Below, one piece after another: positions 1,532-59,813 of a stretch of 64,000 nt of DNA. Each line of letters begins with the position of its first letter. The first letter of the stretch is position 1. Under the pieces are notes generated by a model, which was given only the letters and a program-made list of their open reading frames with translations, had not been told where the DNA came from and ran no database searches. The position numbers were made by a program, and so were the translations under genes. Origin of the DNA: Rhizodiscina lignyota (taxonomy: Eukaryota); NCBI GenBank assembly GCA_010015805.1, contig ML978134.1, forward strand, positions 186,001-250,000, written 5' to 3'.

Positions 1532-3222
1532 ATGGCGACATTCTCTTTCAAACACCCAGAGCTGGGCGAGATACGTACCCATGATTACGACGGGGTCCTT
1601 GAGCTACTTGGGCTTAAGTATGCATCTCTCGAGGATCGATTTGCACCGGCCGAACTGGTTGAGGCGACCTCTGGAGAATCTCTCGATGCGACCAAATACG
1701 GGCCCCAAGTGCTGTCACCTCTACAAGGCATAGATATAGAGCGCGGTCTCATTCAGCAAGCCTTGCCAAATCCTGAGTTTCCAGGTGTGTCCGACAGTAA
1801 TGGCTTAAATTTAAACATTACATCGCCCACTGGAGGCTCCAAGCTTCCAGTCGTGGTCTTCATCCATGGTGGTGCTTTCGGAATCGGTGCAAACTGGTAC
1901 CCTCATTATGATTTCAAACGTCTAGTTCGAATGTCAATCGAGCAGGGCATGCCTATAATTGGCATCACTATCAAGTCCGTTAATGATGACTTCTATTGAG
2001 GCGCAGGTCCTGACTGATGAGGACAGTTACCGACTCGGCGCACCAGGGTTCCTTTTCTCAGAGGAGATGCGAGAGGCGGGCTACCTCCCGAACAATGGTT
2101 TGCGAGACCAAAGAGTTGCGCTCCAGTGGATCAAGAGGTTCATCGCGGGCTTTGGCGGCGACCCCGATAATCTCACCGTGATGGGACATAGTGCCGGTGG
2201 AATCTCAACATCGTACATGCTTGGTTCAGACGAGCCTCTGTGCAAGCAACTGATCATCTTTGGGGGCAGCCCTCCGCTGCTGAAACCGTTTCCATTGGAA
2301 ATCGCAGAGCATTTGTACCAGCAAGTCACAAACGCACTTGGGCTCGGGTCCCTGTCTGCCCCAGACCGGGTGAAAGCCCTCAAGCAGACTGACGGTGCTA
2401 AGCTTCTCGAAGTAACCCCAATGTCGGTCCCCCTGGTTCCTGTAGTCGACGATGACATTGTCAAAAGCGTGCCTAATTTCGAAGCTGTTGCCACCAAGGG
2501 GTCTGCTGGAGCGTGTGGAGCAGAGAGGCAATGGTGTCAGGCCCTGATTGTCGGAGACAGTGCTGATGATGTGAGAATTTCCGCTGTTTCCCATCTTGAG
2601 GCTGGAGCTGACAAATCCCACTTAGGCTAGCGCATTTGTTATGATTCATCTAATGGGACGCAAAGCTGGGATCGGGTCTGCTTTCGTGGCACATGTCCGC
2701 AATAGCCTATCGTCCCAATCTTCAACCGCGGAGGCGCTGCTGAGGAGCTACGGCCTCGATGGCGATGTATCCGATGACGACGCGGCGATACGGAAACTCA
2801 TTAAACTAGGATCAGACCTCAATTTCTTCGCTCCAGCCGTCCATTTTGCCGCAGCATTCAAAGGCAAGAGCTACGTATTCCATTTCAACGAGCTGAATCC
2901 GTGGGATGGTCCGATGAAAGGTCTGGCCACACACATCTTGGACGTTGCGTTTCTGTTCCAGAATTTCAATGAGCGCTTGTCCGAAGAACAGAGGTCTACT
3001 GCGGTACAGCTCGGAAAAGATATCATATCCTTTGTGAATGGCGAGGCACCATGGCCTCCGTACAACACGGAGAATGGAGCTGGGGTGTATGCACACGGGA
3101 AGCGAGAATATGTAACTGCTGCGGGAAGCACTGGACGAGAGGATACCGTCTTTCAGCTCGCTGAAAAGGCTGGGCTTGACCAGCTCTTGGACGTTTGGCA
3201 AGCGTTCTTGTTCGGTGTATGA
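1532..3222 (+). CDS. Carboxylesterase type B (alpha/beta hydrolase)
   Basis: FIHGGAF oxyanion motif, NYRLG rebuilt across intron 1975-2026, GHSAG nucleophile; second intron 2571-2625. Confidence 0.9.
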
Positions 3223-32736: not shown

Positions 32737-35700
32737 TCAGGTAGTGGCTTTGGCAGCCCATGCTGCAGTATTGGCAGCCGAACCACTGAGAGCTGCAAAC
32801 AACTGGCAAAAGCCTGAGGCTGGGTTGAATTGCACCGCGATACACAGAGATGTAGTACGGCAGAGCGTGACGCAAGCCTGGAAGTTCGCTTGTGTCGATG
32901 ATTGAAGCGAGGTACCACTATATGCGTTGTTGCATTGCACGGCATAGTGGACACCCGAAATGGTCGCGGTCCTTGAATTCCACGCAGGGCAGGTCAAGGT
33001 CGACGGGAGAGCAGCACTAGACGAGATAATTCTCGTGCCACTGGGCGAGACAATTGCAGTGATGAAGCTGGATGATGACGGCGGTGATGATAACGTGTAA
33101 GACGGTCCGCATGGACCGAGGAGGCCGAGTAGATTGAAGCAGGCCGTTACGCCAACCGAGAGGCTCAGCGATGGGCTGAGAATCGTTGTCTGCTGCGTGG
33201 GAGACGCTGACAGAGTGTACCCAGAGGCTCCACACGGGCCAAGCAAGCCTAAAAGGTTAAGACACAAGTTCGCACCCACGGACAAACTGGCCGAAGGAGT
33301 GATCGTTTGGACTGCAGCTGTTGGGGACGAAGTAAGTGAGTATCCGGATTGCCCGCAGGATCCAAGGAGCCCGAGAGCGTTAAAGCATAGGTTTAAGCCG
33401 ACTGATAAACTTGCTGACGGTGTGATTGTCTGAGCTGCAGCCGCTGGCGACGAAGTAAGCGAATATCCAGATTGTCCGCAGGTCCCAAGAAGCCCGAGAG
33501 CATTGAAGCATAGATTTACTCCAAGTGACAGGCTCACTGAGGGAGTGAATGTCTGAATAGGGGCAACTGGAGACGTGGTAAGCGAGTATCCAGACTGTCC
33601 ACAGGATCCAAGGAGCCCAAGCGCATTAAAGCAAAGGTCCAATCCCACCGACAGACTCGCTGAAGGTGTGATCGTTTGAATCGCAGCTGTCGGAGAAGAT
33701 ACAAGCGAGTAGCCTGGCTGTCCGCAAGTCCCAAGAAGCCCCAAAGCATTGAAGCAGAGGTTTAATCCCACCGACAAACTCGCTGAAGGTATGATTGTTT
33801 GAACAGCAGCTGCCGGAGAAGATGTGAGTGAGTAATCTGACTGTCCGCAAGGCCCGAGAAGTCCTAAGGCGTTGAAACAGACATTTACACCAATGGAGAG
33901 ACTTGCAGAAGGGATAATGGTCTGTACTGCAACAGGAGAATATGTGAGCGAGTAATCTGATTGCCCACAGGGCCCGAGAAGTCCAAGAGCATTGAAGCAG
34001 AGGTTTAAACCGACGGAGATGCTAGCTGAAGGAGTTATTGTTTGTAATGCAGCTGGTGGAGATGTCGTGAAAGAGTAGCCTGGTTGTCCACAGGTCCCAA
34101 GAAGTCCTAAAGCATTGAAACAGAGATTCAGACCAGCGGAGAGACTTGCAGACGGAGTAATAGTTTGTATGGGAATGGGAGAAGATGGGAGACTGTATCC
34201 GGGGGCATTGCAATCACCAAGCAAGCCAAGGGCGTTGAAGCATAGATTGATGCCAGCAGATAAACTTGCAGACGGAGTTATTGTTGAGATTGCAACTGGT
34301 GGCTGTGAGAGCGAGTATCCGGGCGAGTTGCAATCTCCTAATAATCCGAGAACATTGAAGCACAAGTTCGCGCCAACGGACAAGCTTGCGGATGGTGTAA
34401 AAGTCTGGATCGCAGGTGGAGGTTGCGCAAGGGAATAGCCAGGATCATTGCAACTCCCGAGAAGTCCAAGGGCATTGAAGCACAAATCTACACCAATGGA
34501 CAAGCTTGCGGACGGTGTAAAAGTCTGGATCGCGGGTGGAGGCTGCGAAAGGGAATAGCCAGGGTCATTGCAATTCCCAAGAAGTCCAAGTGCGTTGAAG
34601 CACAGATTCACGCCAATAGACAAGCTAACTGATGGTCTGATTGTCTGGTTGGGAACCGGGGATTGAGTAATTGAGTACGCAGGGTTGGAGCAATCGCCCA
34701 GAAGCCCAAGTGCATTGAGGCAGAGGTTAACACCGACAGAAAGACTCTGCGAAGGATAGAGAGTTGACTGAACTTGAACGTTTGGTCCATTCTGGGCGAC
34801 TGGTCCATTCCGCCTTCCAGTTGGACTCCCCACGCTTGGAGTGGTTGTTGAAGGGACTCCCAAACTCGGAATGCGCAAACTGGCGGTTGGGGCCACCGGA
34901 CTCGGGATACTGGTAGATGGTGCTTGGGGGTTCGCAATTCCCAAGCTCACGGTTGCGATCTGCGTACTTACGATGCTGATCGAAGATATCCTCACACTTG
35001 GAAGAATAAGGCTTGGGATGCTTGTCGAAGAGATCGCCAGGCTCCGAACACTAGTGCCGCTTGCCGGAATTCCCACACTCGGGGCCGTTGTTGGAAGCGC
35101 CGGAGGCGTGGTTGGAGGCAACGCAAATGTTGGGGTCGGATTCTGAAAGGTGTTTGTCGGAAATGCTGGAACGGCGGCCGGACGTGTTGACAATGCTGAT
35201 AGCGTAGCTAGAATAGTGTAGTAGCTATTGTCACACTGTCCAGATGCACCCAAAGAGTTCAAACAGAGATTTGCTTGTGCTCCAGGATTCACGGAGCCTG
35301 TGGCCTGATGAAGCGCAACTCCAAGTCTCAGTGGAATCGTAAAAACCGACCCATCGCATTTTCTGAGTACTCCGTTGGTGTTGAAACACATTTGAACTCC
35401 AGTCGAGAATGATATTGATGCAGTTGGACTAACGAATGGTGGCGCCATTGGAATCAGGTACAGACTACTATCACAAGAACTGACATCCCCGAGAGCATCA
35501 AAGCAAAGGCCCACTCCAACCCCTAATGATGCTGTAAGGGGAGGTATTGGTGGTGGTGTAATAACTGGCGGCGGGATTGAAATCGACGGGTTGGGCACAC
35601 CAGGCGGAGGCGGAGGTAAGCCTGGAGGGGGTGGGCCTGGAGGAGGCGGGCCTGGAGGAGGCGGGCCTGGAGGAGGCAGGCCTGGTGGAGGCGGGCCCGG

Positions 35701-38700
35701 AGGCGGGCCTGGTGGCCGTGAAATCGATAGACTGGACACACCAGGCAGAGGTGGAGGTAAGCCCGGAGGGGGTGGGCCTGGTGGAGGTGGGCCTAGAGGA
35801 GGCAGGCCTGGTGGAGGCGGGCCTGGAGGAGGCAGGCCTGGTGGAGGCGGGCCTGGTGGAGGTAGGCCTGGTGGAGGCGGACCTGGTGGAGGCGGACCTG
35901 GAGGAGGCGGGCCTAGAGGAGGCGGGCCTGGAGGAGGCGGGCCTAGAGGAGGTAGGCCTGGAGGAGGCGGGCCTGGTGGAGGTGGTATTGTTGGGTTGGG
36001 CATACCAGGCGGAGGTAAGCCTGGTGGCCGTGGAATCGATGGGTTGGGTACACCAGGTGGAGGCAAGCCTTGTGGCAGTGGAATTGACAGGCTTGGCGCG
36101 GAAATTAAAGAGAGCCCTGATGGTAGAGTCAAGCTGACTCCTGGAGGCGGGTTTCCCGGAGGTGCGTTGCCTGGATTTGCGTTCACTGGAGGTGGGTTGA
36201 ATGGAGGTGGGTTGCCTGGAGGCGCGTTGATCGAGGGCAAGCCTGATGGGGCTGGAATACCGACGGGTGACCCACCTATCGTAGGAATCACTGGAGGCAG
36301 CAAGATGCTCACTGACAGCTGACTCATGGGTGGAACAACAGTCGGCAAGAGCGACGGTGGCCTAGCCGTACCAATTGGGGTGGGTGCTGATGGCGAAGAT
36401 GAGGCCGGAGTACCACTGACGCCTGTCGGCTGAGACCTTCCTGACCCAGAGGCTGGAGAAATACTTGGGGGAGAACTGCTTATGCTCAAGGTCGCTGCGG
36501 CGCTAAGTACAGTACTCTGAGAACCTCCAACACCAGAGCCAGAGGAAAGGGAGCTTGTAGGTGAAGCACCTGTTGAATTGGGAGCGACTTCTTTAAGTCG
36601 AGCCAGTAGGACCGCGCCAGTTACGTTTGGATCAACAACTCTAGATGTAGGTGTTGCTCCAATGGATGCAGAAACACCAATGTCAGTCGAGTTGTCGTCA
36701 TCTGGACCGTATAGCGTACAGTTACATATCGGGTTCACAGTGATGGTCACTCTCTTCCACAAATCATTATCGGCGGCAGCAAGATATTGTTCGAACAAGT
36801 TCTCGGATTCTGGCATCTCGGCTGCGAGCTCTCTCCTCTCCTTGGTAGCCGTAGTTGCATTCGGGAAGGTTTCAGAGTAGGTAGCCGCCAAACATCCCGG
36901 AGTCCTGCTGCAAGCCGCCAAACAAAGTGGGAAGCTAGAGCCGTTGCTGATAATACTTCCAAGAGAATTGGCTTGTGGATACGACAGATAGCACTGTACC
37001 TGATATATTTCCAAATCGTCGCTGGCCTCGACCGTGTAGTTTCGGCCGTTCGCGCTGGGACAAGTGGGCTGGGCAATTACGGGAGATAGAGTGTTTGACG
37101 GAGTCTGGGATGCAGACAGAGTGTTTGATGCCACAGGAGAAGCCAGAGGGTTGCCAGGTACAGAGCCTCCAGAGCTTGGCCCTGATCCAACAGTCGCTCC
37201 TGATGCACCAGCCTCCAGAACTCCGCCACTTGTCGATTGCGCCGAACTCGAAACACGCTGGTAAACTCCGCCCAATCGAATTACACCCCAGACGCCATTA
37301 GTGATAGTAGTGCCATAGTACGAAGTTCGGAGGTCACAGGCCCCAGGGCTGCCGGGCGAGTATCCTGCAAATATGCAGTTAGGGGTAGCTGCACAGAGCG
37401 CTACGCAATCTTCAAACGAGCTTTCTGGAAAGTTGCCAATCGAATCTCCAACTCGATCACCGTAACAGTTGATCATGAAAGTGACTCCATCAGCAGTCGT
37501 CGTGGTTCCATTGTTAGCTGGACAAGGCCCTCCAGCAGCTGGTGAGGATGAAGCAACGGTGCTACCGGTCACCATACTGGACGACCCTGTTGCTGAGACT
37601 CCCCCGGGGATGATAGAAGAGGTATACGATGTACTGGTAAGCTTGACAACCAGTAGCCTTTTTATTGCACCAATAGCACCGGCTCCAGATGGCAGCGGTA
37701 TTGTCATGGCAGATGTCGATACTGTGGTCGTTGGGGCAGGATTGTTTATCGTCGTCACCACTGCCTGGATCCCAGTTGTAGTATATGTCATTGGAATGGT
37801 CGAGACCTGCCCATTTGGCCCTGTTGATACGCTCGAACTTGTGGCTGTCAACGTAAATGTCCTCGACCGGGGCGATACAATCTGCGTCGTAGAAGTAACC
37901 GGAACTGTCCTTAGCTGGCCATTCGGCTCCGTCAGGACGCTTGAAGTAATGATCGTAGATGTATAAGTGTTCGACAAGGTCGAAACAGTTTGCAAAAAGG
38001 TCGATGTTGCAGATCGAATCTCGGTAGTGGTATACAAATATGTCGTCGTCATGCGTTGTCCGTTCGAAGCGGTTGCAACGCTCGACGCCGTTCCAACAGA
38101 GGTAAAAGTGCTTGAATATATGGAAATAACAGGGGTCCCAAGGAGTGCAGTGTCTGCTCCGGTGTTGGCAGCCCAGACAAGATAGCATGTGCCGCTCACG
38201 AACCACGAGGCTGAGCATCCGGTGGTCGTTTCACAGTTTCCCACGCAAGACGCCAAGTCCACAGCATCAGTCCTCGTATAGTTCGTTACTTGGATAGAAT
38301 TGGGATTGCAGAAGATCTGGTATGCTGTACCATCCGACGCCATGAACGTCTGGCCATCTCCACTTGGACATAGGCCCACCGCTGATGTTCCAGAAGGGAA
38401 GGGTGGAAAGGTTGGCGTGGGAAGTCCTGGTGGCTGCCCCTGTTGGCCAGGTACGCCAGAAGGCAGCAATATCGACCCCCCAACACCAGGCGGACCTTGA
38501 TTACCGCCAGCATTGTTGCCAGGAGGAGAATTCCCACCCCCTCCATTGCCACTTGGAGCTTTACCCCCAGCTCCATTTCCATTGCCCGGGTTGTTACTCC
38601 CTGAGCCAGGATTGCTACCACCGCCAGGGTTGCTTCCACCACCATGGTCGCTTCCACCGCCGGGATTGCTGCCACCGCCAGGATTGTTGCCACCGCCAGG

Positions 38701-39121
38701 ATTGCTTCCTGGGCCAGGATTATTGCCTTGCCCTGAGTTGCCACCAGATGAAGGTGCTCCATGGTGAGGCGGAGGAGAGTTGCTTGCACCTGGAGGACTT
38801 TTTCGCGTGGGACTATTCACCGCTTGGCCTTTAGTCCCTGGAGCGCCATTTGAATGCCCTCTCTGCGACTTCGAGGCGGCAGATCCTTTGATTATCTGTG
38901 AGCTTTGAGGCGGTGGTAATGCTGTCACGGTTAGGGTGAATGATGAAGACACCGTGATCGTGACATGTGGAGCGACGCAAATGTCTACATGAACGCGTTA
39001 GTGAGACGCAGGATACAGAGCGCGTTAATACTTCGGCCAGTGAAGACTCACCTCTAGAAACTTGAGCATTAGCGAGTATTGAGAGTAAAGAAACCGCAAA
39101 TGGGTATATGATTCCTCTCAT
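32737..39121 (-). CDS. Giant secreted (~2100 aa) PAN/apple-domain, polyproline and Cys-repeat protein (adhesin-like)
   Basis: Signal peptide MRGIIYPFAVSLLSILANA; intron 38985-39051 joins it to the 2071-aa ORF; four CP..N/DG....Y/F...C...C...C PAN-like modules; Gly/Asn, Thr-rich, Pro-rich and 40-aa repeat blocks. Confidence 0.85.
33085..34765 (-). repeat. 14 coding tandem repeats of 40-41 aa (~120-123 bp)
   Basis: Consensus TITPSASLSVGLNLCFNALGLLGxCGQxGYSLTSSPxAAxQ, counted in the translation. Confidence 0.95.
35590..36070 (-). repeat. 15-bp coding microsatellite encoding PPPG(P/L)
   Basis: Plus strand (ggaggcgggcctgg[a/t])n; translation PPPGPPPPGLPPPG... Confidence 0.95.
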
Positions 39122-43478: not shown

Positions 43479-44613
43479 GCAAGATCTAATGACTGTTGTG
43501 TGAGCGTTTGCGCATAACAGGAACTACCTTTACACCTTCAGCGCTAGATGCGGACCAAATGTTCTGTAATACCAATTGTGAGAAAGCTAGCACATTGGAA
43601 CGAAGAGCATCGAAATGTTTGAGTATGGACTGAGCTACCTTTGTGCCTTTGTCAATTAATGACAAGCGACTTCTCTACAATGCTGCTTAGCTCAACACTC
43701 CAGCAAGCACCCAGTAACGGGCGGCCGGCGCTGAGGGCCATTGGCTGCCATCGAAGAACAAATGCCCACACTGAACACCTGGGGGTCAAGCTGACTTTTG
43801 AGTTCCTCCTGGAAAAGGAGGAGGGAAGTAGCTGGACCGGGATTTAGCTGTGCAGCGGTAAAATCTACTCCGCGCAGTACTCATGCTTCAGAACCATTTG
43901 TACTCTATGACCAAAGTGGCATTTTTTTCCCGAATTGAAACTCAATGCATTGCCATGAATATGACGAACAGATCGCATTTTGCGATGATCGCCGTGGTCA
44001 AAGTGAGCAACGTGAGTATAGCTACAAGAAATGGACAGCGATTTATCTTTTAGGATAAGACGCGTTTAATCTATAATTCAACGGAACCACACTTCAGATC
44101 AGACGGATCAAACTGATCAGACCCTCAATCCTAGGGTTAGGATTCTTGCTCTCTTCATGCGCATATATGATCCTAACAGCCTACCGAGTACTTCCTCACA
44201 CAGGTGACAGCGCTGTACAACCTATATTAGCTATATTATATGCTAAATAAATAACGACGCTACCTAATATAGCCACTCTACGCTACTCTCTACTTGTTAT
44301 AGCCCTCATAAGGACCTATGGCGTATGTGGCTAGTAGTCTACGAGTGGCTGTCGTATTCTCCCGTCTCAGATGTTGCTGCCTAGCACACTCGCCTAGAGA
44401 CTGATCTCCCGAGTCCACTTCCCCCCACTATCACAATAGGCGAAAATATTTCCTGCCAGTACCTTATTTCTCTATAATCCTATAATTTGGATCTCTCATC
44501 TTTAGGCGCTGCAGCAGCTCGCTATTGTATGATATCTCTTTTAGGAGCGAAATAGACCCAGGCGACCTACCGTAAATTTTCAAGCATCGGCACGGACGTT
44601 ATTCTCTAGCCTG

Positions 44614-46754
44614 ATGGAAGTCTCAACCTGCAACGTTCTTACTGCTTTAAGCAACACTGAACTGGACATTGGCCGTGATCCGCCAAGAAGGGACCACACA
44701 ATATGTTTGTCCGATCTGGTCGAGGGAGAAAATCTAAACTGTCCAATTTGCTCCGCCATATACAATGCTGTAATCACTAGAGTCGCAACAGAGAACCCAA
44801 ACGCGGACATCAGTACCATCAGATTATCTAGTCGAGCGTGTCACCCGGTTGAAATCCAAGCCGAGCTGTGGTGTCCTGGCAGAATATACGATTATCTGCA
44901 CCTTGCTCTTTATAGGATAGCAGGTACGAATTCTATATACCCTTCCTCTGCTGGCTTCAAACCCCTTCGGTTTTAATTTGATTATTCTCAAGCCGAGTGC
45001 TGAAACATAGCTCAATCCTTAGAGCAGCCCACAGCAGACAGAATCAACGATAATATTCAAATCCGCCAAATCGGCAAATTTAGGCCACCCCAACCAAGCT
45101 CGGATTCGCCGTCGTGTTTCGAATTGATGACATCGTGGCTCAATGACTGCTTTGAACATCATGATATATGTGACGGGGGTCATATAGCGCTCATACCGAC
45201 ACGGGTTATTCGAATAACCAAAAACTCTCCAACGCCACTGCTTCAACTGATGACGGGTAATGGGTTGGTCGCAAACTATGTAGCTCTCAGTCATTGCTGG
45301 GGTCTCGAACCATCGTTAAGGATGACCAGCAAGAATCGTCGCCAGATGGAGCATGACCTGTCGTGGTCTCTCTTACCCAAAACCTTTCAGGACGCAATCC
45401 TTGTTACATTGCATTTATGGATGCAATACATCTGGATCGACTCACTGTGCATAATCCAAGATGATCCTCTTGACTGGGACCGTGAGTCCGCTCGCATGTG
45501 TAATTGCCACACTCACAAGTATCAGAGCGGAACAATTACTGACGGCAGTAGGCGAAGTATACGAGAATGCTACGCTTGTTATTGGGCAACAGTGGCTGCT
45601 GGTGACCGAGAAGGTTTCCTAACTCACCGACAGGGCAGGGTGGATTATTTTTCAACGGGGGGAGATTCTGGTACTCCGGACGCTTGCTTCAGTAGCTGGA
45701 TCGAGCATTATGAGCATCATTTCAATGATGGGCCACTTTCGACGCGGGCATGGGCGTATCAAGAGCAACTCTTAGCTCGTCGGTTTCTGTCTTACGACTC
45801 CTACGAACTCCTTTGGGAATGTGATTCAACTTGGCGGTGCGAATGCGGAGTCGGAGATGCACTCGGACAAAAATTCCACCCTATCATATTGGATCCCTCC
45901 TGGAAACCGGAAATGCCGAATTTACTTACCGAGCCTGGTATTCAACAGTCATAGACCGTTATTCCGGTCAGGATTTGACTATAAGCTCTGACAACATTCC
46001 AGCCATATCCGGTATTGCAAAGCGCTTCCAACGGAAGCTGCACGACCGATATGTTGCTGGACTCTGGTCAAATGACTTCATTGAAGGGATACTCTGGGAA
46101 CGCGTACTGGGTTTAATGAGTCAGCGCTCTGCCATAATGCCAACCAGCTACTGTGCTCCTTCTTGGAGCTGGGCATCAGTCTTGTCGCCTGTCGTTTACT
46201 CGGAGTTTAAGCTGGTGCGCACTTACACGCAGGTAGTCAACGTACAATGCACACCAGCTGGGACCGATCTTACTGGAAGAATTAGCGCGGGCGCTGCCAT
46301 ACTATATGGACCACTCATTGAGGCATGGGTTCGGGTTGGCCAAGGAAATGTTGAGCCAACAGAAGAGTTATTCCTCTACCTCGACCCGGACCGAGAGTCT
46401 CGCGCTACGTGTAGGTTCGTGACCGACTGCCCGCTAGCTATCGAAGAAGCCGTTGATTTGTTCGGTCAAATCCAATGGGAAGTACGAAGAATTAAAAACT
46501 ATGAATACGATAGCAATCTTGGATTCGACGAGAGCGCCAACACCGAACTCAAGGAGGCTCGGGTATACTGCTTGTATATTGGGATTCGACCTGCTGACCA
46601 CACATATGGCTACCGCGGGTCTTGTGCATTGGTTCTGAGTCGCAGCAAGGCAGACCCAGAGAGGTTCGTGCGACTCGGCATGTCTTCTGAGACCTCCGAA
46701 GCCCACGGCGAACTTTTCCGCAGTGCCAAAAACACGACCATAACAATCATCTAA
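44614..46754 (+). pseudogene. HET-domain (heterokaryon incompatibility) gene with two -1 frameshifts
   Basis: YVALSHCWG, LPKTFQDAI, YIWIDSLCIIQD, PLSTRAWAYQE, APSWSWAS; introns 44924-45022 and 45500-45551; frameshifts near 45585 and within 45860-45915. Confidence 0.75.
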
Positions 46755-46964
46755 ATGTCAATTCTTCCATCATACGGCTTGATTTGGTATTAATGCATCA
46801 GATCGATGGATAAGTAAGAATAAGGTTGTCCCTTACCAGCTATTATTGATGGGCGGCGCTCATGTCACGGTCCTATCTGCATCAACCAACGGGGCGATGA
46901 TGTTCTGGACATGGTACTCACGATATATCACGGACTCATAATTCATCTAAGTGCCTTGCGCGGC

Positions 46965-47190
46965 AGACTATTCGAGACCGAAAGTGGGTATCTCGGACTG
47001 GGACCGAGGCTTTGCTCCCTGGGATCAAGTTTGCGTACTGCATAATTGTAAGGATCTCTTTGTCCTGAGGCAGGTTGGCCCCCATTGGATCCACCTTGGA
47101 CCCTCCTTTGTGCTCGGCCTCATGGGCGGCGAGGCACTCTCTGATGTTGTGGACGGGAAACGCGAAATATGTGAGTTCGAAATTCATTGA
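46965..47190 (+). pseudogene. Relic of the C-terminus of a Het-6-like HET gene
   Basis: RLFETESGYLGLGPR, frameshift(s), then DQVCVLHNCKDLFVLR..HLGPSFVLGLMGGEA..FEIH*, the typical HET-6-type tail; no upstream part recognised. Confidence 0.65.
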
Positions 47191-47448
47191 CACTAATTTC
47201 AAGATTGTTGATTGATTTCATTTGTTTTATGTCCGAGGCGTCCTTGAGTTCCAACTTCCGTGTGATGAAAATGTCCCAAAAATAGTAATGAAGTTTTCAT
47301 CCAAGCCAATACTGGCGCTCATAGTCTCATCATATGATCATTCTGCCATGTAACACCATTGTAGCCCAATTTGTAAGCAAAAGGCCAGCCCATGACCGCA
47401 GTGAAGAGGAGTTTCGCCGTAGAAGTCGGATCTGGATGCTGGTTGGGC

Positions 47449-47791
47449 CTAGAGGCAGCAGCAATGGCTAAGTAGATGATAAGTTTATTCTGTTCCAATA
47501 CCTTGATATTCGCTCAGTGAGAGATGAAGTTAATACTTACAAAGGCTCATCGGTGCAATCCTCGGCTTTGGAGATTTTGCCCTCAAGAGCACACTGTGAT
47601 ATATCAGTCCAAGGCATCATAGCTCACCAAACACCAGAACATACTTGAACGAGACACAACTCCGCGCAGCCGAGGGTTTCACCTGCAACGATGTTTGGAG
47701 TGGCGGTAGCCTCGGCCTTGGTGGTATTGGTAGCCATGCCGGCACCGAAGAGTGCCATCGTGGCAAAGGCAGTGATGATGAAGGTCTTCAT
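47449..47791 (-). CDS. Small secreted cysteine-rich, defensin-like peptide (72 aa, 3 exons)
   Basis: Exons 47791-47645, 47593-47541, 47467-47449 with GTATGT..CAG and GTAAGT..TAG introns: MKTFIITAFATMALFGAGMATNTTKAEATATPNIVAGETLGCAELCLVQCALEGKISKAEDCTDEPFHCCCL*; TATA about 100 bp upstream. Confidence 0.8.
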
Positions 47792-48370
47792 GTTCGAAGA
47801 TTGTTGACGAGAGGAATATGAGTGAGTGCAAAGCTTGTTGGTTGACGATGAAGAAGAAGGAAGGGAAGGAAAGGCAGTTGGAACTCGAGGTCTTTATATC
47901 TCCCGAAGGCTTTGCCAACACTACCAATTACACGCCGAAAGGCACATGGCTACTGGTTAAAACGTGTCAGTTTGTGAATATGAAAGCGTTGTCACGTCGA
48001 GCATCACCTCAGTTCAACGCATGACTTGAGCCTCTCGGCTTATGGGTGAAGGTTAAGCTTCTGATTTGATCATGTGTAGCCCCTTAAGTTGCAGCATGCA
48101 CGGGAAAAATACCCTTCAGTATCCGCATCTGGTAGGAGAAGCACACATAGCAGCTATCAGGCTTCCTGGACCATACAACCACTCAGTGCCCAACTTATGT
48201 ATGAAAGTGTTGCCTCGATTCCATTATCTCGGGTGCTCGATGTACTACTTGCGATGCTGGAAAACATTGGCTTCAATCAAGATGGGAGTTTCTGCAAAGT
48301 GAGGGCTCGATTCAACGTGATACGGAGCGTCGTATTTCGAATTCGTAAAGTTGATTCTGCGGCGAATGTC

Positions 48371-49740
48371 ATTTTAATCAAAACAGAAGCTCCAAAACCC
48401 TAATGTCCATGCGAGACGAAGGGTGGATTTGACTGAGAGAGAAGGCACCTCTTGTCTTGGTCGGCATAGAAACAAATATGAGCTCTATCGTGATAGAAAC
48501 TCCGAGAAGTTCGACCTCATGTACGATGAAAGAATGGCTTGACAATGAGATAGCGATCACGTTCGGGAAATTTGTGTTGTAGCAAGCGCCAACTCCACTG
48601 AGAGAGAAGTGTCAGTAGTTTGGAGTTCATGCATGATGGATGCTTGATTCGATCTGGAGAGAAGACCTGTGTTCCCTAAATTGATGTTGATACCAGCATT
48701 AGTTCAATTGGCACGGGAACGCTGAAAAGCTTACCCTCATACACGATGAAGGAATGACTTGACAGGTAGAGAAGAATCGCATTCGTTAAGTCAGCAGTGC
48801 TGCAACGCCAGTTTGGCCGAAGAGAAGATTCGGAGGTCAGAGTTCGTCTGTCGCGGAGGAGTGATTCAATGCAGAGAGAAGCATCGACCTCGTTAACTGA
48901 TGATGCGCCTAGCGTCGATTGGATTGGGGGAGAAGTCCTAATAGTTTGAAGTTCCTGCATGACGGAGGAGGGATTCAACGTAGAGAGAAGAGTCAAGCTC
49001 GGTAAATAGACGACCCAGTCAGCGACGATTCAACTGAAAGAGGAGACTCATAAGCACAAGGTGGTTATATCTGAAATTTGCGATTTGACTACTAAAGAAG
49101 ACTCGTGCTTGCAAGGTTGAGGCTGCGGCGGGCTTCGATTTGATTGAGCCCGGAGGCACAATGACTCGGCGTTCCCACAAGATTAAAGGCTGATTCAGTT
49201 AAGACAAAGCACTCTTTTGCAAATTTGAGGTTGCTGTGAGTATCAATTCTGTCGTGATAGGCGACTCACGCGCGTGAGATTGATGTAACCGCGAGGAGTA
49301 GTCCGATTGGGATAGAATACTGATAAGTGCGGGCCTGAGGGCAAGGGTAGCATCGATTCTATTGTAGTAGGTGACTCGCGCGCGCGAAGCTGGTGGCGCG
49401 GCGAGCAGTAGTTCAATTTGGATAGGAGACTGCTAAGGTCGAGGTTGAGGACGAGGTGAGCGTCGGTTTGATTGAGCTAGAAGCGCAGCAGCAGTAAAAT
49501 TAACGAAGCACGCACGAGCTCTTCGACCAAGACAGAAGACTGGAAGTGTCGAAGAGGACGTTACCATGAGCCTCAATTCAACAAAGAGAGAAGTCTTGAC
49601 TCTATACTGTCAGTGTAGCGGGGAGCGCTGACGCGATTGAGGCGGAAGATTCGGGGAGGCGGAGCTTACGTTCTGAGGACCAGGATTCGACGAAAAGAGA
49701 ATAACCTCGTGTGAATTGACATCGTAAAAGACGAGGTCTG
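48371..49740. repeat. Degenerate 55-bp periodic array, ~25 units, with 110-bp higher-order structure
   Basis: Motif like GATTCRAnnnnnnAGAAG recurs every 53-55 bp (48371, 48426, 48481 ... 49575, 49630, 49684). Confidence 0.85.
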
Positions 49741-50073
49741 GTAGACGGAGAGACGGAGTTTGTGCCAACTCTTATATAGTTCATGGCATTTGGCGCATCA
49801 AAAACAACACACTCTACAGCGACAGAAGACCCAACGATATAAGATCGACGCATTAGGAGCGATATATCTAACATCACGGAAGATTCGAAAGGTGCACAGT
49901 TCACGTATCAATTCAATTCGTTTGATTGAATTTTGAGGCTCTTTGAGCCTCCGAATAGTATATACAGAAAGCAAAAGTCATTGTTCATCGCTGGTATCCT
50001 GTACCAGCGTATGCATGCCACCGTACGCCACCCAATGCATGTGAGACACTGGTCGTCACTGCCGTACGTATGT

Positions 50074-51658
50074 TTAGAAAACGCCTCCGAGACCGGCGTG
50101 GTGGACGCGATGATGGTGGACGTGACGCCTGCGCTTCGTATCAGCGCCGGCGGTGACCGTGGTCGTCACGATATCCTCCTCAATGTACACCTCGTGCACT
50201 GCGCCTCCGCTTGTCCAGATCGACGTAGACACCGCATTCGGATCGCCGTCCTGGGCATCGCCCATGTCAGGGCTTGGCGTTGGCACTGGGGAAGGAACGT
50301 CTGCGGAAGCGACCTCGACATCAGAGTCGGCAGTTGGAGTAGCATGGGCGTAGCTAGATGGCGCCTCAGCAGCAGTGATGCCTCCGCCAGAGTTGTCGGT
50401 GTAGACAGAAGTGCCAATGGTGTAGCCAAGACTGTAAGAGACGCTCTCGCTTGAGTGAGTGGGCTCTGGATGGGCCGATCCAGTGGGCTCGACGGTCTGG
50501 CCAGGAGAAATGTTGGTTGCCTGTGCTGGTCCGCTCTGGATGGGAACGTTGCCACAAAGACCGTCGCTCGGGCCTTCACAGTCGTCATTCTTGATCTGAC
50601 TAGGCATTGGGAAGGTGCACTGCTGAGCGTCGTCATCGGACTGCAAGCTGAAGAGTGGGCAGTCAGAGATCTCGCCAGACAGATTGGTACAAGTGTTAAC
50701 GGCCTTCTGGAGGAAGTCGACATCCCAACCGGTCATGAAATCACCGTGATAGCCGCAGCCTGTATACAACATCAGTTAATCCGTTTTGGGAAAGGAGGTC
50801 AAGTGGAATCACGTGGTAGCAGCAGTAAGAGGGAAGTGTGGGGCCCAAAGACTTACCAGTCGGATCTCCATTTGAGAGCACGAATTGTCCATCCTCGCCT
50901 TTGAAAGCATAGGTGTTCCAGATAGTCTCGAAGAAGAGCGATGGGGTGCGGGTCGTGAAGCCTTCGGGACAGTCTCCAGTCATGACGAGATCGGGGTAAG
51001 CCATGTGAGACTTGTGATCCTTTGAGTCGACATCATGGCCATTCCAGCAAGAAGGGAACATAAGCTCGAGGCGCACACCGTCGGTGCAATTGGCGTCAAG
51101 GTAGTCCTTGCTTGGCATGAAGTGACGATACAAGCTTGGCTCAGGCTGTACGGCGTAGTTGAGGCAGTTGAAGCCGAGAGCCTTCTGACCGAGCGAGAAT
51201 TGAGTCTTGTCCGAAGCAGTCCAGAGAGACTTGGGAGTATCAGGAATGGGACCGCTGAAGTTGCGAAGATTCTTGTTGCCAGCAAGAAGGCGGAAGTTCT
51301 TTGGGAAAGCCTGGATGTTGTCACCGTAGAGCAAGTAGTACGCAAGCATGCCTCCGATCTGGGGGACGATGACAGTGGTGCCGTTGGTGTACATGAAGTG
51401 AACCGATGGAGTCCAGTAGGCGCTCTTGTCCTCGTACACGCCACAAGAAGTGCAGTTCGAATCCATGAGGTCGTCGTAGCTAGTAGTGAAGCCGAAGTTG
51501 CCACCGCCGTGGATCGCGTGGCTGTGATCAGAGACCTCACCGGGATCCATGAGAGGATCGAGACGACCAAGGCCAGTGCGAAAGTGGCATGGCATGCGCC
51601 AGAAGGCGTCGGCGCTGCTGAAGAGCAGGACAACGGCCAGAAGGTTGATGAGCTCCAT
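50074..51658 (-). CDS. Secreted DUF1996 domain protein
   Basis: Signal peptide; RLDPLMDPG..SDHSHAIHGG, DKSAYWTP, FPSCWNG, SNGDPTG|CGYHGDFMTGW across intron 50760-50856; Ser/Thr-rich tail. Confidence 0.92.
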
Positions 51659-53593
51659 CCTCCTAAGTGAAGTAGTAAGACCGTAACAAGTAAGAATGCA
51701 AATTATAGATATTTGTACACAGAATGTAGCAGCTCGCGGAGCGCAGATATGTTCAGATGGCTTGAAATGATCGTTTCTCTATCGAGATGGGTCGAACCAG
51801 TCGCGATGTTGTGTGCGTAGAAAAAGAGTGGAGGTGAGAGAAGGTTGTTGTGTTGATGTTGAGTTGCGAACTTAAATTTGAGTCGCGCTTCGAGAGGTCA
51901 CGCGCTAGCGCTTCGGTTGGCCAGGCGGCAGGTGTTGCAATCCGTGGATAGCCGATAATGAGCTCGTTTCTGGTGTTTGGAAAGTTTGCGCGATGAGTGA
52001 TTTCCGATCTCGGACAGTGTTTCTCGTCCTCCGGGAACAAGTTTCGAAACGACACCCGCAAACGCTTGAGCGAAGGAGTTGGCTGAAAGAGGCGATGTCT
52101 TCGGACACGACCTCTGCAGGCTTGAAAGGAGTGAACGACGTGATGGCACGTCCAAAGGAGCGGCACGCGTGATGCGGGGAACGTGGTCGAAGTAAGGGAG
52201 CGTAGGGGAGCACTCGATAAAGGAACGACGAATGCTTCGGGCGAACGAAGGTGAAGGTGGTGAAGAAGGACGACGAGGCAAGGAGGGGGGCAGCCAAGAA
52301 ATGAGGTCTGCCTCGCCGCCGCGTGATTCCCCAGCTCGGCCCTCTCCTGCTCATCTGACGCTCCTTCCCACTTTCACTGTGGTGGTGCCAAGGCGCATCC
52401 TTAATTCCCCACTGACACGTGGGCTAGCCTGCAGCGGGCCTAGCGCATCCAGCTTTGCGGCAGGAACGGGAAGGGAGCGGCCAATGGCGCGGCACATGAA
52501 ACAAGCCGGCCCCACCTATCAAAAGCTTGATCGGCGCCGCTGCCACCTGTTTCGCTAGCTTCCGCGCCCCACCTTCCCTGCCAAAATAGCCGAAGAGCCT
52601 CAATCAAGGCCAGAATCCATGTTCAACAGGCATCTACGAAAAATTCGCCGGTGTGGCGTATTGGAAGAGTTGTGGAGCGCCACTGGAGGCAGCGATAGCA
52701 AAGACGACTTTCAGCACTTCCTTTGTCGTGCACATCCTCAATTGAAGTGTGCGCTCAACGCGCCGAAGATTGCTCGACCTTTGTCCTCCGTATCTGTCCT
52801 GTCCCACGTCTGGAGATTGTTCGCGCCCCAGGACGCCGCCGCGCGGCCTTAGCCGATCCTTCACTTAGGTTGTGCTTGTGCTTGCGCAACGTCCAAATTT
52901 ATCGCATCCCAATTTCACTCGGCCCCTTTGACGTAGGATTCGCGGAAGGATTGCAATCTCAGGGACTTCAACTCCAACCTTCCTTTTCCTTTCAGGACTG
53001 AGTGACTTCCAGAAGCGTTCAGCATCCCCTTCGGCTCGAAATTGCATTGCGACTGATCGACATAGGTACGCCATCCTAACGAGCTCACGGATCTGCCTGC
53101 AAACTTTCGACCGCAACAATAAGCCAAATGCCGAATAGACTTCTAAGCGACATGGATATTACTCGTGCTGGGAGGCACTGCGATAAGGATGGCGCAGGAC
53201 ACTCAAGAACAGTTTACGGAACTTTTGACTCTGATCGAGCTTCACTATTGGGAAGCTCAGCCAATTGACTATTTACTTCGATAGGGAGCTTGTCCAAATC
53301 GTTATTATTTAGCGATTTACCAATGTTAGCTTGATGTTGCAACTGCTCTCTTAATGTACAGACCAAATCGGCATGACTCGTCAGACATAGCCAAATAGCT
53401 CCTGCAGCTGTTGCGTAGTTGTTGAGTCGAGTTTGAACAAGTAATCGAGCCGGAGCGCAGCTGCAGCGTTTCAAAGCAAGCCGGTCTTACGTATAATAAC
53501 GAGCGAGAGCATATCACAAAGGCTTGATGATATATGCTTCGGACATCTTTAGTCGTGCTCTGTATTGGCCAAAGCGGTTTGGACTTCTCCCTC

Positions 53594-55558: not shown

Positions 55559-57028
55559 TCAGCCTTTCAACTTCGCTTGAGACACCCGCCACTCCTTGCA
55601 TGTCCGACATTGACATGTCTCCCAGTTATCGTGAACCCGTTTGAAATCGTCCTGTAGTTTCTCATGGTAAGAGGATGAGTGCCACGTGAAGCCCCCTTTC
55701 ATCTTGTGCTGAAACAATTGACCAATCCTGCCCTCTTCGTTTGCATCCGCCTGCCACTCCCTGAACTGCTCGTTGTCAAGTGCTTGAGAGCGAAAGAAGC
55801 ATAAGCCAAAGTCAGTCATGACAGTCTGCCATTCCATAGTGACCGGATCTTTGCGCAGAAAACAGTGTCGGAAATTGACGTCTCTGTTGCAGACTCCTCG
55901 ATCTCTGATAAGACCAATAACACGCACAGCGTCATCGCCAATAGCCTGCCAATCCGCTTGCGGAACCAAGGTATGGTCCTCCTCCAAATCCCCCATTGTG
56001 AGACCTTCGATATATTCCATAAGGATTCCTGGAATTTCGAGAAAGCTCTTTCCACCTCGCGGATTAGGATCGATGCCTTCGTTTAACGGAGTTGAGCGAA
56101 AGCCTTCGGCCTGCAACTCTCTAGGTTCTTCCTCGATGTGCTTGGCCTCCTCGACGGGCATTTCTTTCTCAACGTGCTTGTTCTCCTCGGCGAACTTCTC
56201 CTCCTTAACGAGCTTCTCTTCCTCGACGGGCTTCTCTTCCTCAACCGGCGTCTCCTCAATCGGCTTCTCCTCTTTATTCATTCCAGGACGGCGTCCTTCG
56301 GGACCGATGGTGTCCAGCAAAGGGTCAGCTCGTAACACTGACAGAGCATGCTCCTCCTGGACAAGGATAGGGCCGACTGTGTCCAGCAAAGTGCCAGTTT
56401 GTAATATTGGCAGCACGTGCAGTTGTGGGACAAGGACAGGCGCGATTATATCCGACAATGGGTGAGTTCGTAACACTGGCAGAGCATAGACCCGTGGGAC
56501 ACCCTTCCCTTGGATGTCGCAGAGCTGCTCGTACGCTTTCTTTTCGACGTTGTACGTTCTGCAAGAAAGATATTGCAGGAAAGCCTCGCGCTGTCCGCGG
56601 TTCCATTCTGCTTCTTTACCATCGTCATAACCTTCCCATTCCATTGGATGCTCCTCTCGAAATAGAGAAGCTAGAGTCGCCCACATCTTCGCTGCTTCGC
56701 CATTGAAGACCGAATCAGTGTACTCAGTTTCGATCTCGGAATCCCAAAGCTGAGCGTCATTTTCTTGTCGAAGTTGACATGCAAAACGTCGATCATAAAG
56801 CTTCAGGATGAAGCGTCCTTGGAGAGAAGGACAATCGAGGCTAACAAGCAACGTGCAGGATAGTGTGAAAGGCTCAAAAACCTTGATGATGGTGGCATTT
56901 GCCTGGCGTTCCGCATCTAACTGCAGCAGTAGGATGTTTCCTGCCACGTATGGGCACCTGCAATTAATCAGCATATCTTTGCTTCGTGTGATGAGCTGTA
57001 AAGCATACTGGGCCTCAGCAGACGCCAT
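55559..57028 (-). CDS. Fungal protein-kinase-like protein with repeat insertion
   Basis: FILKLYDRRF, EKKAYEQL..IQGKGVP, GILMEYIEG, GVCNRDV, VMTDFGL; intronless. Confidence 0.8.
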   Translation of the reverse strand: MASAEAQYALQLITRSKDMLINCRCPYVAGNILLLQLDAERQANATIIKVFEPFTLSCTLLVSLDCPSLQGRFILKLYDRRFACQLRQENDAQLWDSEIETEYTDSVFNGEAAKMWATLASLFREEHPMEWEGYDDGKEAEWNRGQREAFLQYLSCRTYNVEKKAYEQLCDIQGKGVPRVYALPVLRTHPLSDIIAPVLVPQLHVLPILQTGTLLDTVGPILVQEEHALSVLRADPLLDTIGPEGRRPGMNKEEKPIEETPVEEEKPVEEEKLVKEEKFAEENKHVEKEMPVEEAKHIEEEPRELQAEGFRSTPLNEGIDPNPRGGKSFLEIPGILMEYIEGLTMGDLEEDHTLVPQADWQAIGDDAVRVIGLIRDRGVCNRDVNFRHCFLRKDPVTMEWQTVMTDFGLCFFRSQALDNEQFREWQADANEEGRIGQLFQHKMKGGFTWHSSSYHEKLQDDFKRVHDNWETCQCRTCKEWRVSQAKLKG

Positions 57029-57653
57029 TTCGGCAAGGTGCTCGTGGTTGTTAGTAGATAGGTTGTTGCTTTGCGATGGATAAGGAATGGAAAGATTTTT
57101 AAAGGTGTGCCAGAGTGTTCAGATATGGCACCAACACTGCTTGGTGTTAAAAGCTGGGTCAGAGATTTCATTTCTGTTGGCATTATTGTGACGACAGAAG
57201 GTGAAGTTTCCATCTTCAAGCAAACATGAATTGGACAGCAGGGACGGGTGGAGCATTTGAGGCAAGCGCACCGGCGTGCGCAAATTCCGACAGTTAGAGT
57301 AGAGTAGCATAACCGAAGATATCCCGCGAAAGGGGCTTTTATATATTTCATAACGTTCATTCAGCAAACACCAGCTTCATCAGCAAGAGCAGCTCCGCGT
57401 GTTAAGCTTGCATTCGATTAATCACGAGATCTGCTCAACACGATTGCATGGACTTGGCCAATTTTCATTCAGTGTCTCTCATTGTTCCCTAAGATCTCCT
57501 GGGTGTCTATATCCAATCCCTGTATGCCAGTCTCAAAAGGATCTCCATCCGAGTGGACCCTATTTCCTATCAATCACCCCTCAACCAGTTTGCTCATCGC
57601 ATGTTCCCATGCCGATCTATTCAAGCCTTCAATCGACCAAAGTTGAAGCATCT

Positions 57654-57983: not shown

Positions 57984-59813
57984 TTTGAAGGTATGTGGGT
58001 GTTAGAAACTGATAGGGTAGTTTTCCCTTGCTAGGTTTGACTCGACTTGTAGTTGTGGTTATAGTCGTAGACTGTGCTGACGAAGAAGTCTAATAGCATC
58101 TAGGAGGAGGGATATTTATACTCTTCCATGGTGTCATAATCAAGGCGCGTCTCTAGACTTCGGCGGCGCTAGAGGTGTAGTTCTTGTGAATTCGATCGTG
58201 GTACGTGACATTGCTTTCCCGAGAATAACACATTGACGGCCAATGATAGCTAGACGCCATCGCTATTCAAGAGTTTCGCGATTATGGTTTGCTAGTACGA
58301 TTCCGCCGACTTCACACCTGACCCCGTGCATCGCGTATTAGCCTCAACACTCGCCCAACTCCAAATTATTGTGCTCTTATCCAAGGTTATTCACTTAGGT
58401 ACCACACTTGCAGCAGGCAACGGTGACCTCTCGTGACGCCTGCTAGTCTGCATGATATTATTCACGGTGTTGCAATCGCAGCCGTACGCCCAGTCTTCGG
58501 TGTCGTTAGACACGTGCTGAATGTGATAGGCAATCTCACTTTCCGAAAGTCTAAGTAACACATTAACTGTTACTAATAGCTAGGCGCCATTGGGCTCAAG
58601 GGAGTTTACCAATTACGGTTTGTTCGTACGCTCCGGTCGGCGTTACACCTGTTCATGCGTGATGTTCCCACGATCGACAATTGAGAGACCGAGCGTCAGT
58701 CCACTTGGCCAAAGGTCCCCAGTCATTGCTGCATGCGCCCAGTCCCACTGTCGACAATCTCAGATCTCTAAATCAAGACCACCACGAAATACGGACAGGC
58801 AGTCTTCGTTTCCGAAATTCACTATATCTGCTACACGCACTTTCAGCGAGCGGTGGAACAGCGTCTCGAGGAGCAATCCTTAAAGATGCTAGCATATTAC
58901 CTGTGGGAGAAAGAGCAGCAGCTGGTATACATGCGGATGCCGGCTATCGTTAAGGCGAAGCTCAGGGAGCTCGCTCAAGCGGCGGAGAATGAAGGGCTTG
59001 TTTGATATGAGCTTCGCCTTATTCGATGGTCGGGTACCATTCAAGCTCCTGTTCCAGCTTCTCGCCCTCTCCCAGGGAATATGCCTAGCATCTTGAGGGA
59101 TTGTCCCTCGAGACATTGTCCCTCGAGGCAACTGTTCTCCCTTAGCTCGCTTAAAGTACGTATAGCGGATATGGTGAGGCTCGGAGGTTTAGATAGTACT
59201 AATTCCCAAATACAAGCACAAAAGCATGTATCAATGCAAAGAGATAACATATAAAGCATACGCAATGAGCCTTTCAGTGATACTCTTGTTTATACCGAAG
59301 AGAAATACTCGTTCCTGTTACACGTGCTCGACCTTATCGGCCTTAATTAATATTATCACTCTTAGTTCTCTTCTCTGCCTTCTGTACGGGTAAAGGCGCT
59401 GGTAGAGCTCTCGTCGTCCCGCGTATCTCCCGTATCTTCTCTTTCGATAGCATCGGCGAGCTGCTTGGTTCTCTGAAGCCAGAATTAGCGGAGGCATCAA
59501 CAGAAACTGCGACCGAGCCCAACTCACCTCACTCCCTCGTCCTCAGTCATATCACGGCTGAAAGATGGGGTTGAACAGGCTGAAATCCCTAACTGGACAT
59601 GCCTTAGTGCGTCCCATGATCAAAATATGGTGTATTGCAGTGAGTTCAAGAACCAAATATGGAAATTCCTGAATAATTGTACACAACGCGTACAAAGCCG
59701 CAGTCTTAGCTCATCAGATGCATTCATAAATAGATAAAGAACCACCTTCTGCCCAAAGCCAATGAAGGTGCCATTCCCATTCGAGCTCTACAAACTGTCT
59801 TTTCAGATCCACT

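Follow-up and report, generated by a model that had tools for sequence, protein, structure and literature searches.

What maintains a 55-bp rhythm in an intergenic region of Rhizodiscina lignyota, a wood-dwelling Dothideomycete, when the repeated sequences themselves have come to differ so widely? The question has several parts: whether the repetition is real, how it arose, and whether its core and its spacing are still under constraint or are simply the remains of an old duplication. The array is real and satellite-type, and it carries measurable signs of constraint. Its main part (48371..49738 of the 64-kb window, by which is meant the whole stretch of DNA that was analyzed) has 25 units of about 55 bp, equal to 12.5 copies of a 110-bp A/B dimer, with a core in unit columns 1-23 that is purine-rich on the plus strand; the array itself is assigned to neither strand. 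The core is present at all 25 starts listed by the first-pass annotation, and the mostly exact 55-bp spacing described there is confirmed (55 bp in 19 of the 24 spacings, 54 bp in 3/24, and 53 bp in 2/24). In-sample core scores lie between 9 and 27 bits in 24 of the 25 units; the unit at 48810, which has a deletion within its core, falls below the ungapped cut-off. The proposed check for 55- and 110-bp autocorrelation has been run and gives z scores of 14.3 at lag 110, 11.0 at lag 220, 10.5 at lag 55 and 8.4 at lag 165, whereas 200 shuffles never exceed a z of 4.0, whatever the lag. The region is non-coding, since each of its six reading frames holds 12-34 stops, as expected from the earlier statement that no ORF crosses it.

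Tandem Repeats Finder, run at score 30, does not report the array and returns only two short internal repeats (period 6 and 8). Nothing else of the kind turns up in the 64-kb window: a scan of lags 30-130 finds no second non-coding region with 55/110 periodicity, and the core-like matches seen elsewhere are isolated, with no support for full repeat units around them (nhmmer E 2.4 and 4). No tRNA genes are found, and the ten strongest spectral peaks include none at a period of 10-11 bp. The public run X1, possibly the window's own source and hence not independent, spans 44000-52500 as a single contig with flat depth and zero differences, which speaks against an assembly artefact; it contains no other record with 80% or more identity over the array.

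The true unit is the 110-bp dimer, although the 55-bp period originally described stands. Two alternating linker types had been suspected, and mean unit identity does alternate, at 0.44-0.51 for even lags vs 0.41-0.42 for odd lags. In leave-one-out scoring, 22/25 units prefer the A or B type predicted from their position; parity is imperfect in u13, u19 and u23 (3/25 units), and u24 and u17 are close. The similar pairs singled out at first sight are indeed among the alike (48481/48701 67%, 48591/48917 67%, 49245/49355 69%), and the bootstrap gives high values to several sister pairs (u3/u7 98, u4/u8 88, u10/u12 93, u17/u19 95, u18/u20 95) whose members are separated by two or four units, as block duplication would leave them. 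With no pair of units above 71% identity and a mean of 44%, homogenization must have ended long ago. The linkers had been called variable; they do come in two types, yet they are mutually homologous and share one common ancestor (leave-one-out z mean 3.0, with all 20 exact-length units positive). When each of these 20 units is left out in turn and aligned to the profile of the others, 19 align without gaps and the last unit takes a compensating pair of 2-bp gaps. Of the properties by which satellite-type arrays are recognized, head-to-tail homology over the full unit length and block duplication with higher-order structure are both present; ongoing homogenization or high copy number is not seen in this array, whose best pair stands at 71%. 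Its history runs from a 55-bp monomer to the A/B dimer, then through local amplification in two- and four-unit steps, after which homogenization stopped long ago.

The array also extends past the ends first given to it: the units inside those ends hold, but the full extent is about 48270-49864, or about 27 repeats when decayed edge units are included. On the left lies a B-type unit of 62 bp (48309..48370; two insertions, +7) with a gapped profile score of 17.0, where the best of 60 background segments reaches -0.8, and beyond it a weaker A-like unit of 39 bp (48270..48308; 16-bp deletion) scoring 4.6 against -5.7 for the best of 60 background segments. On the right, a 71-bp segment (49739..49809) replaces one B unit; its profile score of -14.5 is within background, and it contains an 8-bp tandem duplication (49743-49758) plus a TATA-like site. 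There follows an A-type unit of exactly 55 bp (49810..49864; score 16.6 vs a background maximum of 9.9; nhmmer E 0.041), and after that a borderline extra unit at 49865-49919. None of these edge units and segments is assigned a strand, and the edges bear indels of +7, -16 and +16.

Homologous linkers bear directly on the suggestion that the geometry is repeat-spacer-like. An array whose linkers match each other is not CRISPR-like, and its repeats are not near-identical either (average core identity only about 0.55); a CRISPR-like repeat-spacer locus was accordingly rejected as a candidate, independently acquired spacers being at odds with a linker z that is positive in every exact-length unit. 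An array of micro-exons and introns (e.g. 52-bp introns with 3-bp exons) could draw on the sum 55 = 52 + 3 and on the AG found at core columns 15-16 in 20/25 units, but the best GT column is filled in only 11/25 units on the plus strand and 10/25 on the minus strand, the best YAG column in 8/25 and 4/25, and the best GTRMG column in 2/25. Both of these readings are largely refuted, and together they keep the smallest share of probability of any considered here. The idea of a processed ncRNA fares no better where structure is concerned, folding and covariation having been checked as proposed: mean z for unit folding is -0.39 to +0.04 across 8 register/strand settings, whole-strand folding of 991 of about 1370 nt gives z of -1.0 and -0.47, 12 dimers yield zero consensus pairs on either strand, and Rfam offers no credible match (one at E 2, outside the array). 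Nor is there a signature of RIP in the array, where TpA/ApT is 0.67 vs 0.64 for the window, G+C is 0.48, and (CA+TG)/(AC+GT), at 1.16 vs 1.30, is only slightly lower; RIP therefore does not explain an accumulation of substitutions without indels. CpG depletion is likewise absent from the array. A scan for bacterial promoters and terminators, which is not applicable to a fungus, returned nothing above chance.

A conserved core among less conserved linkers, as claimed at the outset, is borne out on both the dimer and the monomer tree. Core identity exceeds linker identity by 0.127 on the dimer tree (simulated 0.006 +/- 0.029, 0/2000) and by 0.173 on the monomer tree (simulated 0.004 +/- 0.031, 0/2000), these simulations having a uniform rate and no context-dependent mutation. 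A best-window statistic, which corrects for the post-hoc choice of the core, gives 0/2000 on both trees. Partitioned tree lengths of 8.4 for core and 14.3 for linker put the core rate at about 0.6 times that of the linker, the A and B consensus agree in 21/23 core columns vs 13/32 linker columns (Fisher P 1.7e-4), and conservation in the core is above that in the linker for each of the four bases. The motif is roughly TTYRAY, four free bases, and then a purine run with AGAAG at its end. Within units 1-12, the A type has no core excess (0.51 vs 0.53) and the B type has one (0.62 vs 0.47); three of the seven deletions fall within the core, and the array has a mild CpG effect (C to T 0.24 vs 0.15-0.21). 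It would appear from these comparisons of sequence that moderate constraint on the core, and on the spacing considered below, is supported, not proven.

The claim that length is better kept than sequence holds for neutral rates of 0.03 or more indels per substitution and fails for rates of 0.015 or less. Units 1-24 contain seven indels, every one a single-base deletion and none larger, while the dimer tree has a length of 5.2-6.0 substitutions per site, or about 570-660 substitutions; parsimony on the monomer tree requires at least 401. Mutation-accumulation lines of Neurospora gained 134 insertions and 97 deletions alongside 1077 base changes, with 88/96 one-base indels lying in homopolymers (10.1101/2022.03.13.484164, PMC10234303). 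By our own derivation, the ratios stated there translate into about 48-76 non-repeat indels, i.e. 0.045-0.07 per substitution, mostly longer than 1 bp; the neutral indel rate in the spacing test is thus one borrowed from Neurospora and not from the host fungus. Tree simulations produce 19 or more exact units out of 24 in 0/4000 runs at 0.045 indels per substitution, with P <=0.002 at 0.03 and P 0.03-0.04 at 0.02 (a weak rejection of neutrality), and neutrality of spacing is not rejected at 0.015 or below (P 0.10-0.40). Finding zero multi-base indels in 24 interior units has P <0.001 at 0.045 if at least half of indels exceed 1 bp. The main spacing count leaves out the edge units; allowing three units to be off by more than 2 bp gives P 0.006 at 0.045 when half of indels are longer than one base, and P 0.43 if nine in ten are single-base. 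The count is also one in which whole-unit deletions leave no trace, and well-phased relics are likelier to be noticed. The indel deficit, then, is real if this fungus is Neurospora-like; with a small-indel rate three to four times lower it disappears.

The array is flanked by two minus-strand genes, with the 3' end of one on its right and the promoter of the other on its left. The first encodes a DUF1996 protein (50074..51661, ends approximate, minus strand, 3' end toward the array; PF09362, E 5.7e-70), which matches a Rhizodiscina lignyota protein at 100% identity over 86% of the query; its next matches are from other Dothideomycetes and unnamed proteins, at 76% or less. The second is a small orphan gene (47319..47791, minus strand; annotated protein P0121, 109 aa), annotated in Rhizodiscina lignyota, with a signal-peptide-like start (by eye) and several cysteines. 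Its start codon is 580 bp from the main array, which lies on its upstream side. No Pfam family is found for its exon-1 frame, a word search of 30-97 residue proteins finds no homologues, a full HMMER scan recovers only the protein itself plus one spurious repeat protein, and its Atlas matches are all below 0.8. Its annotation may be wrong: inspection by eye suggests a nearer splice acceptor, at about 47469, after the second intron, and using it would give a shorter product than the annotated 109 residues, with three adjacent cysteines at its end. A HET-domain gene (45004..46754, plus strand; PF06985, E 5.7e-21) is mentioned for context only; at 44545-46754 (plus strand) it runs across three frames, with introns or a frameshift near 45825-45954, and a 36-bp piece of it (45427-45462) matches another contig of run X1. 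The first-pass annotation had placed the array in an island of HET and defensin-like genes. The HET gene is there, but the defensin-like label rests solely on cysteines, and the island is weak, since no family or homologue is found for the small gene and the array has housekeeping genes (NUBPL, DHH/DHHA2) for neighbors within about 4-7 kb. A Pfam family is found in 4/10 neighboring frames scanned.

Other features of the window are recorded as observations in their own right. Two direct copies of a non-coding sequence of about 100 bp (58226-58320 and 58556-58651), 330 bp apart and sharing 72% identity, lie upstream of a long minus-strand ORF ending at 57118, with TATA-like sites at 57336-57345 and 58113 nearby, and could represent a duplicated regulatory element. 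That ORF (55559-57118, minus strand) spans 519 residues and matches no Pfam family; it has a Glu/Lys-rich repeat in its interior, and by eye its end looks kinase-like. A frame of 2086 residues (32737-38997, minus strand) has Gly/Pro-rich tracts and, near its end, about 15 cysteine-containing repeats of 40-41 residues; it resembles a secreted or cell-wall protein of adhesin type.

Once RNA structure and splicing are ruled out, constraint would most simply be carried by a protein that binds many weak sites set a fixed distance apart. The explanation we tentatively prefer, though at a little under even confidence, is that an old satellite-type array has been kept as evenly spaced protein-binding sites. 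Acting as DNA, it would offer one protein or complex a series of weak putative sites at even spacing; the contributions of many imperfect sites would add up, and neighboring sites would cooperate across a constant distance, much as at the 2-micron STB locus. The weakest step is the target, which might be the orphan secreted-protein gene, through its promoter 0.5 kb away (the array then serving as an enhancer or silencer) or, alternatively and no more securely, local chromatin (a boundary or anchoring site). The DNA helix has 10.5 bp per turn, by which measure 55 bp is 5.24 turns and not a whole number; same-face phasing is therefore unlikely and, as one form of the phased binding sites suggested earlier, unsupported.

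The first-pass annotation had allowed that this could be only an old minisatellite. As an account of origin that is correct; as an account of present status it is the main rival reading, and a possible one, though we think it the less likely. On it, dimer and tetramer duplication was followed by functionless decay, the regular spacing came from a low small-indel rate, traceless whole-unit deletions and a bias in what is noticed, and the core excess came from mutation that depends on sequence context, together with exchange of sequence between the A and B types. The duplication history is indeed typical, the edges are fraying, the left-half A units lack a core excess, deletions occur within the core, A/B parity lapses in three units, and low indel rates leave neutrality unrejected. 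Set against this are the lack of any multi-base indel in 24 interior units at the Neurospora-derived rate of 0.045, the core excess found also on the monomer tree, and the absence of RIP or CpG depletion; in addition, the nearby 72% duplicate pair, a single pair, has a 5-bp plus a 1-bp gap in about 110 columns.

Host function could also be dispensed with if the array were a relic of binding sites in a mobile element (subterminal repeats or a partition-type locus), constrained while the element was active and with its copies now dead. This would explain both conserved core and spacing, and yet we consider it improbable: run X1 yields no further copy matching the array at 80% identity or above, the 10 neighboring frames scanned include no transposase family, self-comparison of the window reveals no matching flanks, and the interior has little sign of decay following such a death. 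Slightly more doubtful again is transcription of a multi-unit ncRNA from the minus strand, starting at a TATA-like site (49778) and running toward the small gene, as an unstructured pyrimidine-rich scaffold or a regulatory upstream transcript. A TATAWAWR match (49771..49778, minus strand), directed inward 33 bp from the right end of the array, and the C/T-rich minus strand are what it has in its favor; the match is a lead only, as the window has 9 such matches vs 7.2 expected by chance, and the RNA analyses above gave no folding signal, consensus pairs or credible Rfam match. Readings of any other kind are given a very slight chance.

The preferred reading of spaced binding sites has a parallel in the STB locus of the Saccharomyces cerevisiae 2-micron plasmid. 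STB (PMC6344848) consists of five and a half units of 62-63 bp, 65-98% identical, that share a better-conserved core of about 25 bp, and its function rises with copy number; it is a plasmid locus, with a TGCA motif, bound by Rep1 and Rep2, whose own genes are on the plasmid. The likeness lies in a fungal non-coding tandem array of imperfect, similar-sized units with conserved core and divergent flanks, and the difference in that the present array is chromosomal, with about 27 units, about 44% mean identity, a different core and a partner protein that is only hypothetical. The STB-type hallmark, units that diverge around a conserved core yet keep their length, is found here with the caveats given above; linkage to REP genes or location on a plasmid is not, as ordinary fungal genes surround the array. 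The relation to STB is best taken as one of analogy, not of membership.

Primate alpha satellite is a higher-order (dimeric) satellite with a conserved protein-binding box, the CENP-B box. The present array resembles it in its A/B dimer, in block duplication of two and four units, and in having conserved and variable parts of the unit; it differs as a single 1.6-kb array among ordinary genes, with no recent homogenization (best pair 71%) and no near-identical copy in run X1. Fungal CYP51 genes have tandem promoter enhancers, including the 126-bp repeat of Penicillium digitatum and TR34 and TR46 of Aspergillus fumigatus. These too are tandem repeats upstream of a fungal gene that plausibly multiply binding sites, but they are recent, with few near-identical copies, whereas the present array is old and has many units, and any effect on expression is putative.

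A search pattern of paired cores at period 55 was found in 0/15 stretches from viral contigs, 0/34 from metagenome contigs, and 1/19 from prokaryote genomes, using a pattern insensitive enough to catch only 2/24 adjacent pairs of the array itself and collections that are not fungal genome sets. The one hit (L067 300-680, Ignavibacteriaceae) belongs to a bacterium; its tandem repeat is young, alternates between variants at a period of about 55 bp and, judged by eye, is apparently unrelated in sequence. It was rejected, as was a young repeat of period 57 (L019), also unrelated by eye. The pattern also caught a non-coding array of 28/56-bp periodicity in a metagenome contig (L027, around 3007-3081). 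Look-up of the array by sequence, which detects close matches only, gave no look-alike, and searches of the open full-text literature, subscription papers being outside their scope, listed no description of such arrays. Ascomycetes may have degenerate intergenic repeats of about 51-53 bases, and, if these exist, the novelty of the array drops.

What the array means depends on which reading is right. A neutral array would be a well-preserved record of tandem-repeat ageing in a compact genome and would imply that indels are unusually rare there. A real constraint, if it were shared with a second 55-bp array, would point to a DNA-binding protein not yet known. It is conceivable, if rather doubtful, that the array belongs to an undescribed, dispersed family of chromosomal elements of 55-bp period in Dothideomycetes, where selection would hold the spacing and a short core and leave the remainder to drift; its members would bind a hypothetical protein cooperatively and serve in gene control, at chromatin boundaries or in chromosome segregation. 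Because repeat finders miss arrays so diverged, spacing-constrained regulatory DNA of this kind could hide in fungal intergenic regions.
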